A DNA stretch of 64,000 nt from an uncultured Dehalococcoidales bacterium (GTDB lineage: Bacteria > Chloroflexota > Dehalococcoidia > Lucifugimonadales > Lucifugimonadaceae), in the NCBI GenBank assembly GCA_964564575.1, contig CAZMBB010000005.1:294-64293 (forward strand). Reading direction: 5' to 3'. The translations under genes and the position numbers were made by a program. Numbering within the stretch: position 1 is the first letter of the stretch; each line of letters starts with the position of its first letter. Shown here in pieces: positions 4,045 to 10,411 of this stretch. The notes beneath the pieces were generated by a model that was given only the letters and a program-made list of their open reading frames with translations, searched no databases and had not been told where the DNA came from.

Positions 4045-5223
4045 TTATGTGAATGGGGTTACGTTTCCGTGGAGTACTCGGAAGTTTTGGGCGTTGCGTA
4101 GTCTTTGGCGTCCGACTAGGGCGTCGTCGGTGACGGTTAGGAGGGTTTGTTCGTATTGGGCGGCGCGGTCTAGGATGGTTGAGCGGCGTCGGCTGTCCAT
4201 TTCGGATAGGACGTCGTCGAATGCGATTATGGGGTCGCGTTTTGTGAATTCGGAGACTAGGGATGCTTCGGCTAGTCGTAGGGAGAGGGCTGCGGTGCGT
4301 GCTTGGCCTCGTGAGGCGTAGCGTCGGGAAGGGGCGTTGGCGATGTCGATGCGGAAGTCGTCCAAGTGGGGGCCGATGACCATGTGGTTGGCGGATTGTT
4401 CTTTGCGTTTGGATGCCATAAGAGAGGTGTAGATGTGGTTGCGGAGGTCGGTGCCGGAGAGGGAGTTGGATTCGGCGGATCGTGCGGCGGAGCCTAGATT
4501 TGGCAGGTAAGTTAGGTGTAGAGTTTCGCCTTCGCTGAGTTCGGAATGGACGGGAGCGGCTCTTGATTGGAGGAGTTCCATGACTTCTCTGCGGGTCTGG
4601 ATGATCTTTGCGCTTTCTTCGCAGAATCGGGAGTCCCAGAAGGCTATCTCTTCCTCGAAGTCTTGGACTTCGAAGGTGCCTCTAAGGAGGGCGTTCCGGC
4701 TGGATCGGACTCGGTTGAGGCGTAGGAGGGTTTGGACGTATTCGGTGTCGAATTGTCCGATGAGTATGTCGAGATAGCGACGTCGGACGGTTGCAGCGCC
4801 GAGAGCGAGTTGGAGGTCGGCGGCTTCGAAAATGACGACGTTGGCGCGTCCGACGAATTCGACGGGAGGGACTTTGATGCCGTTGATGCGCCATTCTTTG
4901 GATTTGACGTTCAGGCGGCTGAAGTTTTCGGTGGTGCTCGGGGCGATTTGGAGGTCGAATTGTGCGCGGACGGATTCGGGTCCGCTGTTGAAGACGCCGA
5001 GGGCTTGAACGTGTCCGCCGTCTCGTGCGATTCCGTGGTTGACGATTTCGCGGTCGTTGCTGGCGCGTAGGGATTTACCGACGGATAGCATGTGGACGGC
5101 TTCGAGCAGTCCGCTCTTGCCGTGTCCGTTAGCGCCAGTGAAGACGACGAGGCCGGGTGAGAGGTTGATGTCGGTATCGAGATGGTTGCGGAAACCGCTG
5201 AGTTTTATGCGTGTGAGGTGGAT
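4045..5223 (-). CDS. recF: DNA replication and repair protein RecF (start probably non-canonical ATC)
   Basis: The track ORF starts at 5091 but lacks the Walker A. Upstream and in frame lies (I)HLTRIKLSGFRNHLDTDINLSPGLVVFTGANGHGKSGLLEAVH. There is no ATG, GTG or TTG between the in-frame TAG (5280..5278) and 5091. ATC at 5223..5221 aligns with the Met of RecF N-termini and is preceded by AGAGG with a 6-nt spacer. Confidence 0.8.
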   Translation of the reverse strand: MHLTRIKLSGFRNHLDTDINLSPGLVVFTGANGHGKSGLLEAVHMLSVGKSLRASNDREIVNHGIARDGGHVQALGVFNSGPESVRAQFDLQIAPSTTENFSRLNVKSKEWRINGIKVPPVEFVGRANVVIFEAADLQLALGAATVRRRYLDILIGQFDTEYVQTLLRLNRVRSSRNALLRGTFEVQDFEEEIAFWDSRFCEESAKIIQTRREVMELLQSRAAPVHSELSEGETLHLTYLPNLGSAARSAESNSLSGTDLRNHIYTSLMASKRKEQSANHMVIGPHLDDFRIDIANAPSRRYASRGQARTAALSLRLAEASLVSEFTKRDPIIAFDDVLSEMDSRRRSTILDRAAQYEQTLLTVTDDALVGRQRLRNAQNFRVLHGNVTPFT

Positions 5224-5370
5224 GTTGCGCCTCTGGGAAGAGTTGGATGTGGTGTTGCTGCAATCCTTGAAGGGTCTCTAATGCGTATCATAATCACAGC
5301 GGCGGGACTGCAAGGTGTGTGGATGGTAGTTGTGGGAAGGCGCAGGGCGCGGCTGTGGAAATGTAGAGAA

Positions 5371-6579
5371 ATGAATGCCTTCCGCAAAGTTCAAATTGCG
5401 TTGGTCGTTGGTGTGCTTGCGGTTGTTTTAGTGGCATGTGGAAGTGATGATGCGGGGGTTGCTACTGTAGCACGGGAGATGGAGCCAACTGCCACGAGTG
5501 TCTCTCCCCCACTGGATACTCCGACATCGGAACCTGAGGTGCCAACCGCGACGAGTGCGCCTGAGCCTACGGAAGCGCCGGCGGCAACAGAAGCGCCTGT
5601 TGCGGCGGTGGCTCCTGAACGCGACTTAGACATCGTAACTTTGCTGCCATTCGATGGCATACCGGCGATAGATAATCCTGGTTTCTTCCCTGATCTTGAG
5701 AAGGCGAATATGTTTTACAAGGACCACGAGCTGGTGCTTGGCGTCGAGATAGATGGGGATGCTCGGGCGTATTCGGTGCCGTTGCTGAGCAGCCATGAGA
5801 TTGTGAATGATGTTGTGGGGGGCAAACCGATCGCGGTCACTTGGTGACCGCTCTGCTTCACTGGGATCGGGTATTCCAGAGTTGTAAACGGGCAGGAGCT
5901 AACGTTCGGGGTGTCGGGGAAGCTGACGATGAATGCGTTGATCATGTATGACCGGCAGACGCGTTCGCTGTGGAGTCATTTTCTCTCGGAGGGTATCGAT
6001 GGCGAGTTCAAGGGTGTGAAGCTGGAGAATGTGCCTTTGGTGTTGACTACCTGGGCTGAGTGGAAGGCGAGGTTCCCGGAGACTAAGGCGTTGTTGAAGG
6101 GGCAGTCGAGCGTGGATCCGTACACGACGTATTACATGCGCGGGGATGCGGGTGTGATTGGGGAGACGAACCGGGATGAGCGGTTGTATGGAAAGGAGCT
6201 GGTGCTTGGGTTGGGGTTTGATGACGGGGCGGTAGCGTTTCCGCATGTTGCGTTGCAGGAGGCGGAGGTTGTGAATACTGAGGTGAATGGGGAGCCGGTG
6301 GTGATTTACTACGACTCGCAGACGACTACGGCGTTGGCGTATTCAAGGGTTGTAGATGAGGAGGTTTTGGAGTTTTCGTTGCTGGTCGAGGATGAGGTCG
6401 ATGGTGTGGCAAAGAGATGGATGGTGGATGAGGCGTCGGGTTCGCAGTGGTTGCCGTTGAATGGTCAGGCTTGGAGCGGGGATTATCAGGGGACGCGATT
6501 GGAGCCTGTTCATGCGGTGAATGTGTTCTGGTTTGCGTGGAGCGATTTCTATCCGGGGACGGAGATTTACGGGCAGTGA
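5371..6579 (+). CDS. DUF3179 family lipoprotein with in-frame UGA (candidate selenocysteine) at 5845-5847
   Basis: Track ORFs 5182..5847 and 5911..6579 share one frame, and no other stop lies between them. The joined sequence reads ...GGKPIAVTW-U-PLCFTGIGYSRVVNGQELTFGVSGKLTMNALIMYDRQTRSLWSH, the DUF3179 core, with TGA at the first Cys of CPLC. The start was set at ATG 5371 (MNAFRKVQIALVVGVLAVVLVAC, lipobox LVAC). Confidence 0.7.
5861..5879 (+). promoter_or_regulatory. candidate bacterial SECIS-like hairpin downstream of UGA 5845
   Basis: The stem is CUGGGA/UUCCAG (6 bp including one G-U) with loop UCGGGUA. It starts 13 nt after the UGA. This was folded by hand only. Confidence 0.35.
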
Positions 6580-7112
6580 GTGAGGACTTGAGGGAATGGG
6601 TGCGGAATGTTCCGGACTATCCGCAGCCGGGGATTCAGTTCAAGGATTTGACGCCGTTGATGGCGGAGCCGAAGGCGTTTCGTGCGGCGATAGATTGGTT
6701 TGCGGCGCAGGTCGAGGAGTTGGCGCCGGATGCGGTTACGGCGATAGATGCGAGGGGGTTTATCTTCGCGTCGCCGGTGGTGGATCGGTTGGGGTTGCCG
6801 CTGGTTTTGGTGAGGAAGCGTGGGAAGTTACCGCCTCCGACTGTGCAGAAGGAGTACTCGTTGGAGTATTCGGAGGCTTCGACGGTTGAGGTTCGGTCGG
6901 ATGCGTTATCGGGAGGTCAGCGGGTGGTGATTATTGATGACTTGTTGGCGACTGGGGGGACGGCGGTTGCGGCGGCGGAGCTGGTTGAGGGTCAGGGGGC
7001 TAAGGTAGTTGGGCAGGTGTTTTTGGTGGAGTTGGGATTTCTTGACGGGCGTGAGTTGATATTGGGTAGGGACCCGGAGTGCGAGGTGGTCTCGAATATC
7101 GTTTATGACTGA
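6576..7112 (+). CDS. apt: adenine phosphoribosyltransferase
   Basis: Contains PDYPQPGIQFKDLTPL, VVIIDDLLATGGT (PRPP-binding motif) and LVELGFLDGR. The GTG start at 6576 overlaps the DUF3179 stop (GTGA). Confidence 0.9.
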   Translation: MSEDLREWVRNVPDYPQPGIQFKDLTPLMAEPKAFRAAIDWFAAQVEELAPDAVTAIDARGFIFASPVVDRLGLPLVLVRKRGKLPPPTVQKEYSLEYSEASTVEVRSDALSGGQRVVIIDDLLATGGTAVAAAELVEGQGAKVVGQVFLVELGFLDGRELILGRDPECEVVSNIVYD

Positions 7113-7831
7113 GGGTTTGAGAAGCGGATTTCCATCAATCGAGAGCCGACGTATAGGCCGATGAACTCGATGATGGTCAGGAGGGCGATGAATAGGGTGG
7201 CTTCTAGGAAGAAGCGCTCTGGGAACAGGAGGAGGAGGTAGTGGCGGAAGGGGTCTAGCTGCCAGAGGTCGTTGGCGAAGCTGAGAAGGTGGAACTGGGT
7301 GAAGATCCATGTGAAGTCGATGACGGCGATGATGATGATGGCGGCGATGGCGATGCCCCAGATGAGAGCGGTGTATCTGAGCCATCTGGAGAGGGATGCC
7401 CAGAATTGGCGGCGTCGGATTGCAAGGCCAATGGCGGTGGTTAGGGCTAGGATGATGCCGGTCCAGACCGAGGTGATGGAGACGTATTTCATCAGGTCCT
7501 TCACGTCGATCATGTGGAGGATTTCGCGCTCGTCGAAGAGGCTGGCGGTGCCGCGGGATGTGTTGACTCTGACGTCGAGTCGTTCGGCGTCGTTTTGGAA
7601 GTAGTCTTTGATCTGGTCGGCTGCGGAGTCGAGTTCGTGGATCGGCAGACCGGTGCGGTCGGGGATGCCGTTGCGCCACCAGTTGTAGGTGTATAGCCAG
7701 TCGGAGTGTGTGATGTATCCGACGTTGATGGCGATGATGAAGATGGGGAGGCAGGCGGCGAAGATGATGCCTAGGGGTAGCATCGTCCAGCGTGATACGT
7801 CGAAAATCCGCGATCTAGTTTCGCTGTCCAC
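7103..7831 (-). CDS. TIGR01906/DUF1461 family integral membrane protein
   Basis: 242-aa ORF with an N-terminal TM segment, FDEREILHMIDVKDLM and C-terminal TM helices. This pattern is recalled for TIGR01906 proteins. Confidence 0.6.
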   Translation of the reverse strand: MDSETRSRIFDVSRWTMLPLGIIFAACLPIFIIAINVGYITHSDWLYTYNWWRNGIPDRTGLPIHELDSAADQIKDYFQNDAERLDVRVNTSRGTASLFDEREILHMIDVKDLMKYVSITSVWTGIILALTTAIGLAIRRRQFWASLSRWLRYTALIWGIAIAAIIIIAVIDFTWIFTQFHLLSFANDLWQLDPFRHYLLLLFPERFFLEATLFIALLTIIEFIGLYVGSRLMEIRFSNPQS

Positions 7832-8600: not shown

Positions 8601-9365
8601 ATGACAAGTGAAGTTCAAGATGCTGATGGTGCGTGTTGCGCGTATCGACGCCTGGTTGAGACGGTGCGAACATTGAGGGATCCGGGTGGTTGTCCTTGGG
8701 ATGCGGAGCAGACGCATCAGTCGTTGAGGTCGAACCTGTTGGAGGAGGCGTATGAGACGTTGGATGCGATAGAGAAGGGGGATGCTGAGGGTTTAGAGGA
8801 GGAGCTTGGGGATCTGTTGATACAGGTCGTATTTCATGCGGATATTGCTCGTCGAGCTGGTGATTTTGATGCGGATTCGGTGTGTCAGAGGGTTGCGGAG
8901 AAGTTGATAAGGAGGCATCCGCATGTGTTTGGGGATGCTGAGAAGCTCGATACTGGCGAGGACGTTATGGATAGGTGGGAACGGATCAAGCGTGAGGAGG
9001 CTGGCGGAGTAAGGTCGATAGTGGCGTCGATTCCCAAGTCTCTGCCGGCGTTGGCACAGTCGGCGGTTTTGCAGCGACGGGCGATGCGTGCGGGGCTGGA
9101 TGTCGGGTCGGGGTCGGATTCGGATGGTTTTGTGGGACGTACCGAGGGGGAGGCTGATCGTGACGTTGAGTTGAGAGCGGGGGAGTTTTTGGCTGCTGCG
9201 GTGCGATCGGTTCAGGCGCAGGGTGTTGATGCGGAGACGGCGTTGTTGAAGGTGAGTTCGGAGTTGCGGGAGCGTGTGTTGAGGGCAGAGGAGATGGCAG
9301 GAGGGACGGCTATTGCCGAGTTGCCGGCCGAGGAGAGGGCGCGGATCTGGGATCAGTCTCGTTAG
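8601..9365 (+). CDS. mazG: nucleoside triphosphate pyrophosphohydrolase MazG
   Basis: Contains LRDPGGCPWDAEQTHQSL...LLEEAYETLDAIE...ELGDLLIQVVFH...RRHPHVFG. Confidence 0.85.
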   Translation: MTSEVQDADGACCAYRRLVETVRTLRDPGGCPWDAEQTHQSLRSNLLEEAYETLDAIEKGDAEGLEEELGDLLIQVVFHADIARRAGDFDADSVCQRVAEKLIRRHPHVFGDAEKLDTGEDVMDRWERIKREEAGGVRSIVASIPKSLPALAQSAVLQRRAMRAGLDVGSGSDSDGFVGRTEGEADRDVELRAGEFLAAAVRSVQAQGVDAETALLKVSSELRERVLRAEEMAGGTAIAELPAEERARIWDQSR

Positions 9366-10411
9366 GGATTGGCTTCAACGGCTTTGCCATCGAACTCGGT
9401 GATTTCGCCGACTACGGTTCCAGTAACGCCTCGGGAGTTCAGTTGGGTGATGAGAAGGTCTGCTCTGTTCTCAGGTATTGAGATCAGCAGACCGCCGGAG
9501 GTTTGAGGGTCGCACATCAGGAGTTTGTCGGTTTCGGTGAGAGATTCATGCCACCTGACGCTGTCGGCACAGGATTCGATATTGCGGTGAGTACCGCCGG
9601 GGGCGATGCCGTCGTTGAGGAGTTCGGTGACACCGGGGAGTAGAGGGAGAGCGGAACGGCGGATGTGTGCGGTGGTGTTGCTGGCCTTCATCATGGTCAT
9701 TAAGTGGCCGATGATGCCGAAGCCCGTGATGTCAGTTGCGGCGTTGGCGCTCGCGATAACCATTGCTTCGGCGGCGTGTCGGTTTAGACGGAGCATTGAG
9801 TCGGTGGCGACGTCTAATGCGTCTCCGAGTTTCCTGCCGTTTTTGAGGGCGGTGGTGATGACGCCAGTGCCCAAGGGTTTGGTGAGGACTAGGGCGTCGC
9901 CGGGTTTTGCGGTTGAGTTTTGGATTTGTTTGCCGGGTTCGACGATACCAACGACGGATAGGCCGTATTTTGGTTCGGTGTCGTCTACGGTATGACCGCC
10001 GACGATGATTGCACCTGCTTCTGCGATTTTGGATGCTCCTCCGCGCAGGATTTCAGCGGGGATGTCTGACGGGAGGGTGCGAGGGAAGGCGGCGATGTTT
10101 AGCGCGGTGATGGGTCGTCCGCCGACGGCGTAGACGTCGGACATTGCGTTTGCGGCAGCGATTGCGCCGTAGGTGAATGGGTCGTCGACTATGGGTGCGA
10201 AGAAGTCGACGGTGAGGACGAGCGCGACGTGTTCGTTTAGACGGTAGACTGCGGCGTCGTCACCGTTTTCGAAGCCTACGAGCAGATCGGGGTCTGACGC
10301 GGCTCCATCGATCAGCCCGCCCAATACCTGGGCGAGTTCGCCTTGGCTAAGCTTTCCGGCTCAACCAGCGCAACTGGCGAGTTCGGTTAGCCGTGGGACT
10401 TTTTCGCTCAT
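9362..10411 (-). CDS. selD: selenide, water dikinase SelD, selenocysteine-containing (UGA at 10363..10361)
   Basis: The track ORF (9362..10324) begins mid-protein. In-frame upstream translation gives MSEKVPRLTELASCAG-U-AGKLSQGELAQVL, then GGLIDG... TGA sits in the SelD G(C/U)GxK active-site loop. Confidence 0.9.
10316..10336 (-). promoter_or_regulatory. candidate SECIS hairpin of selD
   Basis: On the minus strand, CUCGCCCA-GGUAU-UGGGCGGG forms an 8-bp stem (one G-U pair) with a GGU-containing loop. It starts 24 nt after the UGA. This was folded by hand. Confidence 0.45.

Follow-up and report, generated by a model that had tools for sequence, protein, structure and literature searches.

A DUF3179 gene of a SAR202-type Dehalococcoidia bacterium, interrupted by one in-frame UGA, very probably encodes a selenoprotein with a lipoprotein-type N-terminus

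Introduction

Is an in-frame TGA codon that splits a DUF3179 gene of a marine bacterium a lesion, a genuine stop or a site of selenocysteine (Sec) insertion? The question is raised by a gene on the plus strand of a 64,000-nucleotide stretch of contig CAZMBB010000005.1 (hereafter the window), which comes from a marine Dehalococcoidia bacterium of the SAR202 type. An original prediction, made from the letters of the window, had read the two halves as one gene that encodes an exported lipoprotein, with Sec in the conserved CPLC motif and a hairpin downstream that resembles a selenocysteine insertion sequence (SECIS) element. This overall reading was borne out by the conservation of the TGA across relatives, by covariation within the hairpin, by the loss of the hairpin in cysteine forms and by a Sec-containing selD gene nearby. 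The locus is thus very probably a single Sec-containing DUF3179 gene of SAR202-type Dehalococcoidia, with Sec at UGA159, a SECIS element, lipoprotein-type export and a redox motif.

Results and discussion

One DUF3179 gene is interrupted once, at the first cysteine of its CPLC motif

A single in-frame TGA (5845-5847) is the sole separator of two open reading frames (ORFs) that lie in the same frame (5182..5847 and 5911..6579). Read from the ATG at 5371, the gene comprises 158 residues, the stop and a further 243 residues, with the junction ...HEIVNDVVGGKPIAVTW*PLCFTGIGYSRVVNGQELTFGVSGKL..., and the joined translation around the break reads ...GGKPIAVTW*PLCFTGIGYSR.... When the stop was replaced by cysteine, the product matched the PF11376 profile in one unbroken stretch (positions 2-292 of 292, E 4.6e-84) and scored 282.7 bits against a gathering cut-off of 27, which places it within the family. 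The Pfam scan of this product returned DUF3179 alone and no other family, and NCBIfam contains no model for the DUF3179 family. The full-length cysteine homologues read VTWCPLCF at the position of the TGA, in keeping with the family pattern of C-P-L-C preceded by (V/I)T(W/Y), and in a 74-sequence alignment C159, P160, L161 and C162 were each at least 90% conserved, as were S140 and H142, so the TGA stands for the first cysteine of CPLC. All three structural claims of the original prediction, namely one gene split once, a domain that spans the break and a TGA in the first CPLC column, therefore held. The corresponding features are as follows.

5371..6579, plus strand: complete predicted DUF3179 selenoprotein gene of 402 codons, Sec159 among them, that ends in a TGA stop at 6577-6579
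5653..6561, plus strand: DUF3179 (PF11376) domain, residues 95-397, running across the UGA
5845..5856, plus strand: U-P-L-C motif, with the predicted Sec codon TGA at 5845-5847 (residue 159) and Cys162 at 5854-5856

We infer a start at 5371 from the lipoprotein signal that opens there and from recF, which reaches to about 5225 on the opposite strand. The upstream part of the ORF (5182-5370) is noncoding; on the complementary strand it coincides in part with the sequence for the recF N-terminus. The true start is hence placed at 5371. The ORF listed for recF (4045..~5225, minus strand), which begins at ATG 5091, is itself N-terminally truncated: the Walker A motif (GANGHGKS) and the conserved N-terminus lie upstream of this ATG, which puts the true start of recF at a codon other than ATG, near 5225, in divergent orientation to the DUF3179 gene.

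The TGA is conserved among Dehalococcoidia

In a database of 5.8 billion proteins, the close relatives of the product (54-97% identity) were all fragments of 221-231 amino acids that correspond to the C-terminal 55-57% of the query, and full-length matches appeared only at 54% identity or less. Such a pattern is expected when gene callers halt at a conserved TGA. For a comparison at the codon level, 80 loci from species-representative genomes were used, all of them from Dehalococcoidia, Chloroflexota or SAR202, with identities down to 45% and with the cultured Candidatus Lucifugimonas marina JH545 among them. The aligned column held TGA 83 times and TGT once (two copies are present at some loci), and a Sec copy was found at each of these 80 closest genome loci fetched. 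A further 79 metagenome loci, filtered for true DUF3179 context, were added. Orthologues, for which the original prediction had raised the choice between TGA and TGC/TGT at this column, then divided into 121 distinct Sec (TGA) forms and 38 distinct Cys (TGC/TGT) forms at residue 159. Since the TGA is conserved while both halves of the gene are under strong purifying selection, it is not a lesion. Viral contigs contributed a single distant Cys-form match, which was uninformative.

Paralogous copies of DUF3179 also occur next to each other. Tandem paralogues were seen at L065:175 and L065:1345 (a Cys copy, with TGT and the hairpin lost, beside a Sec copy), at L075:4352 and 5693, and at L077:4199 and 5070 (two Sec copies each). 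At L084:6001-8303 a Cys copy is followed by a split second DUF3179 copy, and L107, L114 and L115 each contain two convergent or divergent Sec-DUF3179 copies.

A covarying hairpin follows the UGA and is lost in the cysteine forms

5861..5879, plus strand: SECIS-like hairpin, stem 5861-5867/5873-5879, loop CGGGU at 5868-5872

The original prediction had placed a hairpin downstream of the UGA. Its existence was confirmed, as was its start 13 nt past the UGA, but it is better drawn with a 7-bp stem and the 5-nt loop CGGGU, which begins 20 nt after the UGA. The bacterial SECIS (bSECIS) model of Zhang and Gladyshev from 2005 reportedly has its apical loop, which includes a G, at a distance of about 16-37 nt from the UGA; the DUF3179 hairpin agrees with this model in both loop distance and loop G.

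The significance of the hairpin derives from comparative data, not from the fold of a single sequence. Among 74 distinct Sec-form sequences, the stretch from the UGA to the stem was free of indels, standard pairs made up 98.8% of the cells, and compensatory (double) substitutions were found at four of the seven pairs, in 41 cells, with two-sided changes from UA to GC, GC to CG, AU/GU to CG/UA and AU to GC. The covariation score was 0.313 compared with 0.088 for shuffled alignments, none of 500 shuffles reached 0.313, and the score was at most 0.085 when the 3' partner was slid by 1-3 columns. In some of the compensations one partner change is synonymous and the other alters the amino acid: GGG to GGC (Gly) is coupled to TCC to GCC (Ser to Ala), for instance, and TAT to TAC (Tyr) to ATC to GTC (Ile to Val). 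The loop follows the pattern N-G-K-N-U, its second base being G in all variants (CGGGU, CGUGU, AGUUU and GGUCU). Pairing was nearly complete in the 121 Sec forms (mean 6.85 of 7 pairs, all seven in 108 of the 121), whereas the same columns of the 38 Cys forms had a mean of 3.29 pairs and a maximum of 5. Even in the closest Cys/Sec pairs, which are 72-88% identical, the stem is gone in the Cys partner. The covariance analysis, with four of seven pairs compensated, no shuffle reaching the observed score and the stem lost in Cys forms, thus favours a functional element of the Sec forms.

A Sec-containing selD lies in the same window

9362..10411, minus strand: selD (selenide, water dikinase), Sec-containing, with TGA at 10361-10363 (residue 17)

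The presence of a Sec-containing selD in the window, which had been part of the original prediction, was confirmed: the product matched TIGR00476 (E 4.6e-114) with an alignment that runs through residue 17, in the context SCAG-U-AGKL. Its gene lies about 3.5 kb from the DUF3179 gene, within the conserved order recF - DUF3179 - apt - lit - mazG - selD - lysA - holB. A hairpin of 8 bp with the loop GGUAU (10316-10336) follows the UGA, and the TGA and the hairpin are kept in 28 related genomes; in L031 and L032 a C-to-U change in the stem is compensated by a G-to-A change, so that the pair is kept. The two genes of the window are alike in that the UGA is followed by a hairpin whose 5-nt loop contains G, an arrangement that is conserved throughout the clade. 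They differ in that selD encodes a cytoplasmic enzyme of known function and in the distance of the stem from the UGA (24 nt in selD and 13 nt in DUF3179). UGA is otherwise an ordinary stop codon in the window, where it ends the DUF3179 gene itself and others. Judged by position only, the remaining in-frame TGA candidates in the window fall at gene boundaries or in shadow ORFs of this GC-rich genome.

The N-terminus is that of a predicted lipoprotein

5371..5439, plus strand: predicted lipoprotein-type signal peptide, MNAFRKVQIALVVGVLAVVLVA-C, by-eye reading of the translation
5440..5652, plus strand: low-complexity tether rich in Pro, Thr, Ala and Glu, residues 24-94

The N-terminus has the layout MNAFRK-VQIALVVGVLAVVLVA-C, with a positively charged n-region, a hydrophobic h-region and a lipobox LVAC (5428-5439) that ends in Cys23 (5437-5439); judged by eye, it follows the pattern [LVI][ASTVI][GAS]C that was applied. 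Equivalent lipoboxes are present in the full-length homologues P0022 (LLAAC) and P0027 (LALAAC), and the matching N-terminal segment of P0022 (residues 1-51) has a predicted local distance difference test (pLDDT) value below 50 in its model. Both the LVAC signal and the Pro/Thr-rich linker that had been named in the original prediction are present in the sequence. Given this signal and tether, the protein is most likely exported and lipidated on Cys23, and the DUF3179 domain is probably extracytoplasmic. Such a protein would leave through the Sec translocon and, once lipidated on Cys23, be exposed at the outer surface of the cytoplasmic membrane.

Two genes downstream, a homologue of the lipoprotein intramolecular transacylase Lit is encoded on the minus strand (7103..7831; PF07314, E 4.8e-31; TIGR01906), and it is syntenic in 48 fetched loci. 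Its proximity suggests that the organism modifies lipoproteins and hints at lyso-form lipoproteins in this monoderm lineage.

An all-beta fold and redox operons suggest a possible function

The fold was approached through an AlphaFold2 model of P0022, which at 47% identity is the closest full-length Cys homologue of the lipoprotein type. The model (pLDDT 87) is all-beta and consists of two similar beta-rich halves. Foldseek searches with it returned no thioredoxin-fold match, and together with the all-beta architecture and the DUF3179-only Pfam result this rules out a thioredoxin-fold thiol:disulfide oxidoreductase. The best Protein Data Bank (PDB) matches were Rieske ferredoxins (E 3.8e-3, target template modelling (TM) score about 0.55), none with an E-value of 0.001 or less. 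A weak sequence echo of the Rieske segment '...D-x-x-T-G...G-P' is present in the C-terminal half of DUF3179, and hhalign against a Rieske ferredoxin gave a probability of 0.4% for an alignment that covers the C-terminal half, not the CPLC region. Membership in the Rieske [2Fe-2S] domain family was rejected: the similarity is not statistically significant, and the ligand motifs CxH and CxxH are absent. A sequence-profile search of the PDB gave no meaningful match, no solved relative being detectable.

In the clade of the window, the DUF3179 gene has housekeeping neighbours only (recF, apt, lit, mazG, selD, lysA and holB). In other lineages it is found in operons of the type redoxin (AhpC-TSA/Redoxin/Thioredoxin) - ccdA (DsbD_TM) - DUF3179(Sec) - redoxin (L104:1334-4529 and L107:1728-5901), in one case with overlapping stop and start codons, and flanked by a pair of extracytoplasmic function (ECF) sigma and anti-sigma factor genes. 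Among the fetched loci, BLAST searches with the genes of these two operons detected redoxin homologues at 12 and ccdA homologues at six. Recurrent metal-related genes beside DUF3179 were not seen in the fetched loci.

In the scheme that best explains these observations, the UGA at codon 159 is very probably recoded to Sec, the hairpin 13 nt downstream recruiting SelB with Sec-tRNA(Sec), and selenophosphate would be supplied through the neighbouring Sec-containing selD; the SelB/tRNA-Sec step is one that we infer from the established bacterial mechanism, the cis elements being what is observed here. At the protein level, U-P-L-C (C-P-L-C in the Cys forms) would most likely serve as a redox pair of selenol and thiol on an all-beta scaffold that is not of the thioredoxin type, and reducing equivalents would be supplied by a CcdA/TlpA-like extracytoplasmic pathway in some lineages. 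A redox role is favoured because Sec/Cys interchange is typical of redox-active cysteines and because of the CcdA/TlpA operons. From interchange and operon context, we give about an even chance to an extracytoplasmic selenol/thiol redox function that is supplied by CcdA/TlpA where these are present. A fuller proposal is more tentative, and we consider it possible rather than probable: DUF3179 may be an uncharacterised, non-thioredoxin, lipid-anchored extracytoplasmic selenol/thiol oxidoreductase, or a reduced-thiol-dependent metal handler on a Rieske-derived scaffold, that receives electrons through CcdA/TlpA, with Sec fixed in SAR202 for an oxidising extracellular milieu.

Alternative explanations

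The TGA might be a lesion of a TGC or TGT cysteine codon, arising in a pseudogene or from a sequencing or assembly error; a lone in-frame stop is a common artefact in sequence of the kind found in metagenome-assembled genomes (MAGs) and gene callers do split the gene. However, independently assembled sequences that are as little as 45% identical carry the identical TGA, 121 distinct ones in all, each half of the gene is strongly conserved and free of other lesions, and a covarying hairpin is tied to the TGA forms, so that the comparative data effectively refute this explanation and leave it a negligible probability. A real stop, yielding a 158-residue lipoprotein and perhaps a separate C-terminal protein from an internal GTG or ATG, is very improbable. 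Some truncated product is to be expected, Sec decoding never being fully efficient, and gene callers do find downstream start codons (GTG 5911 here); yet these predicted starts vary among orthologues (MNGQ, MSGK, MLTF), the 21 codons from the TGA to the first of them (PLCFTGIGYSR...) are nearly invariant in frame, the Pfam domain is unbroken through the stop, and the Cys homologues are single polypeptides. We hold it to be just as improbable that the UGA is read through without Sec, either by near-cognate insertion of Trp, Cys or Arg or by lineage-wide reassignment of the codon. Such readthrough would fit the leaky context of a UGA followed by C (the base in column 4 is an invariant C) and the failure to find selA, selB and selC in the window, but UGA terminates the DUF3179 gene and others in the window, which speaks against reassignment. 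Moreover, the UGA is aligned with a catalytic-type cysteine, the hairpin has the geometry of a bacterial SECIS element and is lost in the Cys forms, and the window has selD, a gene required for selenium use alone, with a UGA of its own at residue 17.

A further alternative retains Sec decoding and assigns it another chemistry: U/CxxC and His142 would form a metal site on a Rieske-derived beta fold, as in a metallochaperone or a metal sensor. Rieske ferredoxins are the best structural matches of the Cys-homologue model (E 4e-3, target TM 0.55), S140, H142, C159 and C162 are each at least 90% conserved, TlpA-type reductases serve copper chaperones, and several catalogued UxxC selenoproteins handle metals. 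These points are set against Foldseek matches that are below conventional significance, an hhalign probability of 0.4% with the CPLC region unaligned, the absence of CxH and CxxH, and the lack of recurrent metal genes beside DUF3179. We regard a metal site as rather unlikely, though far less so than the three explanations above.

Several observations weigh against the preferred reading of a Sec-containing, exported redox protein. In the literature, we found no family member with demonstrated selenium incorporation, export or lipidation. The hairpin is the minimum free energy (MFE) structure, yet its energy is no better than that of shuffled sequences (z -0.7 to -1.6), it had no match in an Rfam scan of the whole window, and its conservation is partly confounded by the conserved peptide TG(I/V)(G/V)Y(S/A)R that it encodes, although synonymous compensations do occur. 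Neither tRNA-Sec (ARAGORN, Rfam) nor selA or selB was found in the 64-kb window, the search for the latter two being a scan of ten large ORFs (dnaG, dGTPase, glmS, rpoD, D-xylonate dehydratase, glpK, galactonate-dehydratase-like, purK, Fic protein and otsA/B). The link to CcdA/TlpA is limited to a minority of loci; no CcdA or TlpA gene is present in the window, and both are also absent from several Cys-form contexts. Finally, the weak resemblance to Rieske proteins leaves room for a metal-binding role in place of a redox role.

Relation to known selenoproteins

We know of no enzymatic activity for any DUF3179 protein. Reviews of 2022 (PMC9312934) and 2026 (PMC13188914) include the domain (PF11376), with the motif UxxC/T, among the prokaryotic selenoprotein families, and both credit it to Zhang and Gladyshev 2007 (PMC1976440). 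That study described the UxxC family OS_HP1, to which three Sec genes of the Olavius delta-1 symbiont and one from the Global Ocean Sampling (GOS) data belong. To judge from the UxxC motif that the two have in common and from how the tables are ordered, OS_HP1 is most probably DUF3179, an equation that the papers do not state. The suggestion in the original prediction that DUF3179 is not a described selenoprotein family is therefore mistaken, the family having been catalogued since 2007. Likewise, an exported Sec protein is less unusual than had been supposed, since predicted extracytoplasmic selenoproteins similar to DsbA, DsbG and TlpA were already listed in the GOS survey (PMC2398784). The UxxC selenoproteins catalogued in the 2022 review (PMC9312934) include metal handlers, namely a cation-transporting ATPase and a CobW-like protein. 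According to the BSepDB paper, Dehalococcoidia MAGs carry 46-49 selenoprotein genes and are among the ten richest bacteria (PMC13326102). The gene of the window thus belongs to an established selenoprotein family, in a lineage whose richness in selenoproteins is documented, and does not represent a new family.

The present copy shares with the known Sec-DUF3179 proteins the PF11376 domain, the Sec position, the UxxC motif, Cys homologues at the same column and a SECIS hairpin with a loop G; it differs in origin, as the first examples came from a deltaproteobacterial symbiont of a worm and one GOS read, whereas this one is from SAR202/Dehalococcoidia. With the Sec oxidoreductases of the TlpA/ResA-, DsbA- and DsbG-like types it has in common the UxxC motif, the predicted extracytoplasmic site and Sec/Cys interchange, and in some lineages DUF3179 is co-operonic with TlpA-like redoxins and CcdA; unlike these proteins, its fold is all-beta and not thioredoxin-like. 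To Rieske ferredoxins the likeness is a weak structural resemblance of part of the DUF3179 model.

Current knowledge is not overturned by these results, as the family, its motif and the selenoprotein richness of Dehalococcoidia have all been published. What is added here is a formal SECIS covariation analysis, the contrast between the hairpins of Sec and Cys forms, and the operons with CcdA and TlpA-like redoxins in some lineages, which provide a testable functional hypothesis for a domain that has been of unknown function since it was first catalogued. Annotation pipelines systematically split the DUF3179 selenoprotein in SAR202/Dehalococcoidia genomes, as is evident from close homologues that are stored as C-terminal fragments and from the missing NCBIfam model. 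The protein is probably an extracytoplasmic selenoprotein with a lipid anchor, and the clade in which it occurs is among the most abundant bacterial clades of the deep ocean. Should DUF3179 prove to be an oxidoreductase or metal handler, the gene order recF - DUF3179 - apt - lit - mazG - selD would put two selenoprotein genes in one region, and the protein would offer a first biochemical handle on the extracellular redox chemistry of this abundant ocean clade.

Other genes beside DUF3179

Genes for TlpA/thioredoxin-like proteins whose active site is interrupted by an in-frame TGA, FW(A/T)TW-TGA-PHC, adjoin DUF3179 at L108:359, L125:2124 and L130:3519; they appear to encode further extracytoplasmic UxxC selenoproteins. 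In 19 AT-rich loci (L146:1080-1607 and 18 other metagenome loci of the L126-L162 group), a Cys-form DUF3179 gene of the CPLCFTNQVF type is adjoined by a gene for a multi-pass membrane protein of 175 amino acids, which has a GCCGWW motif and lacks any Pfam match, and DUF7482 proteins are encoded near six of them. This GCCGWW membrane protein may be a lineage-specific partner of DUF3179.

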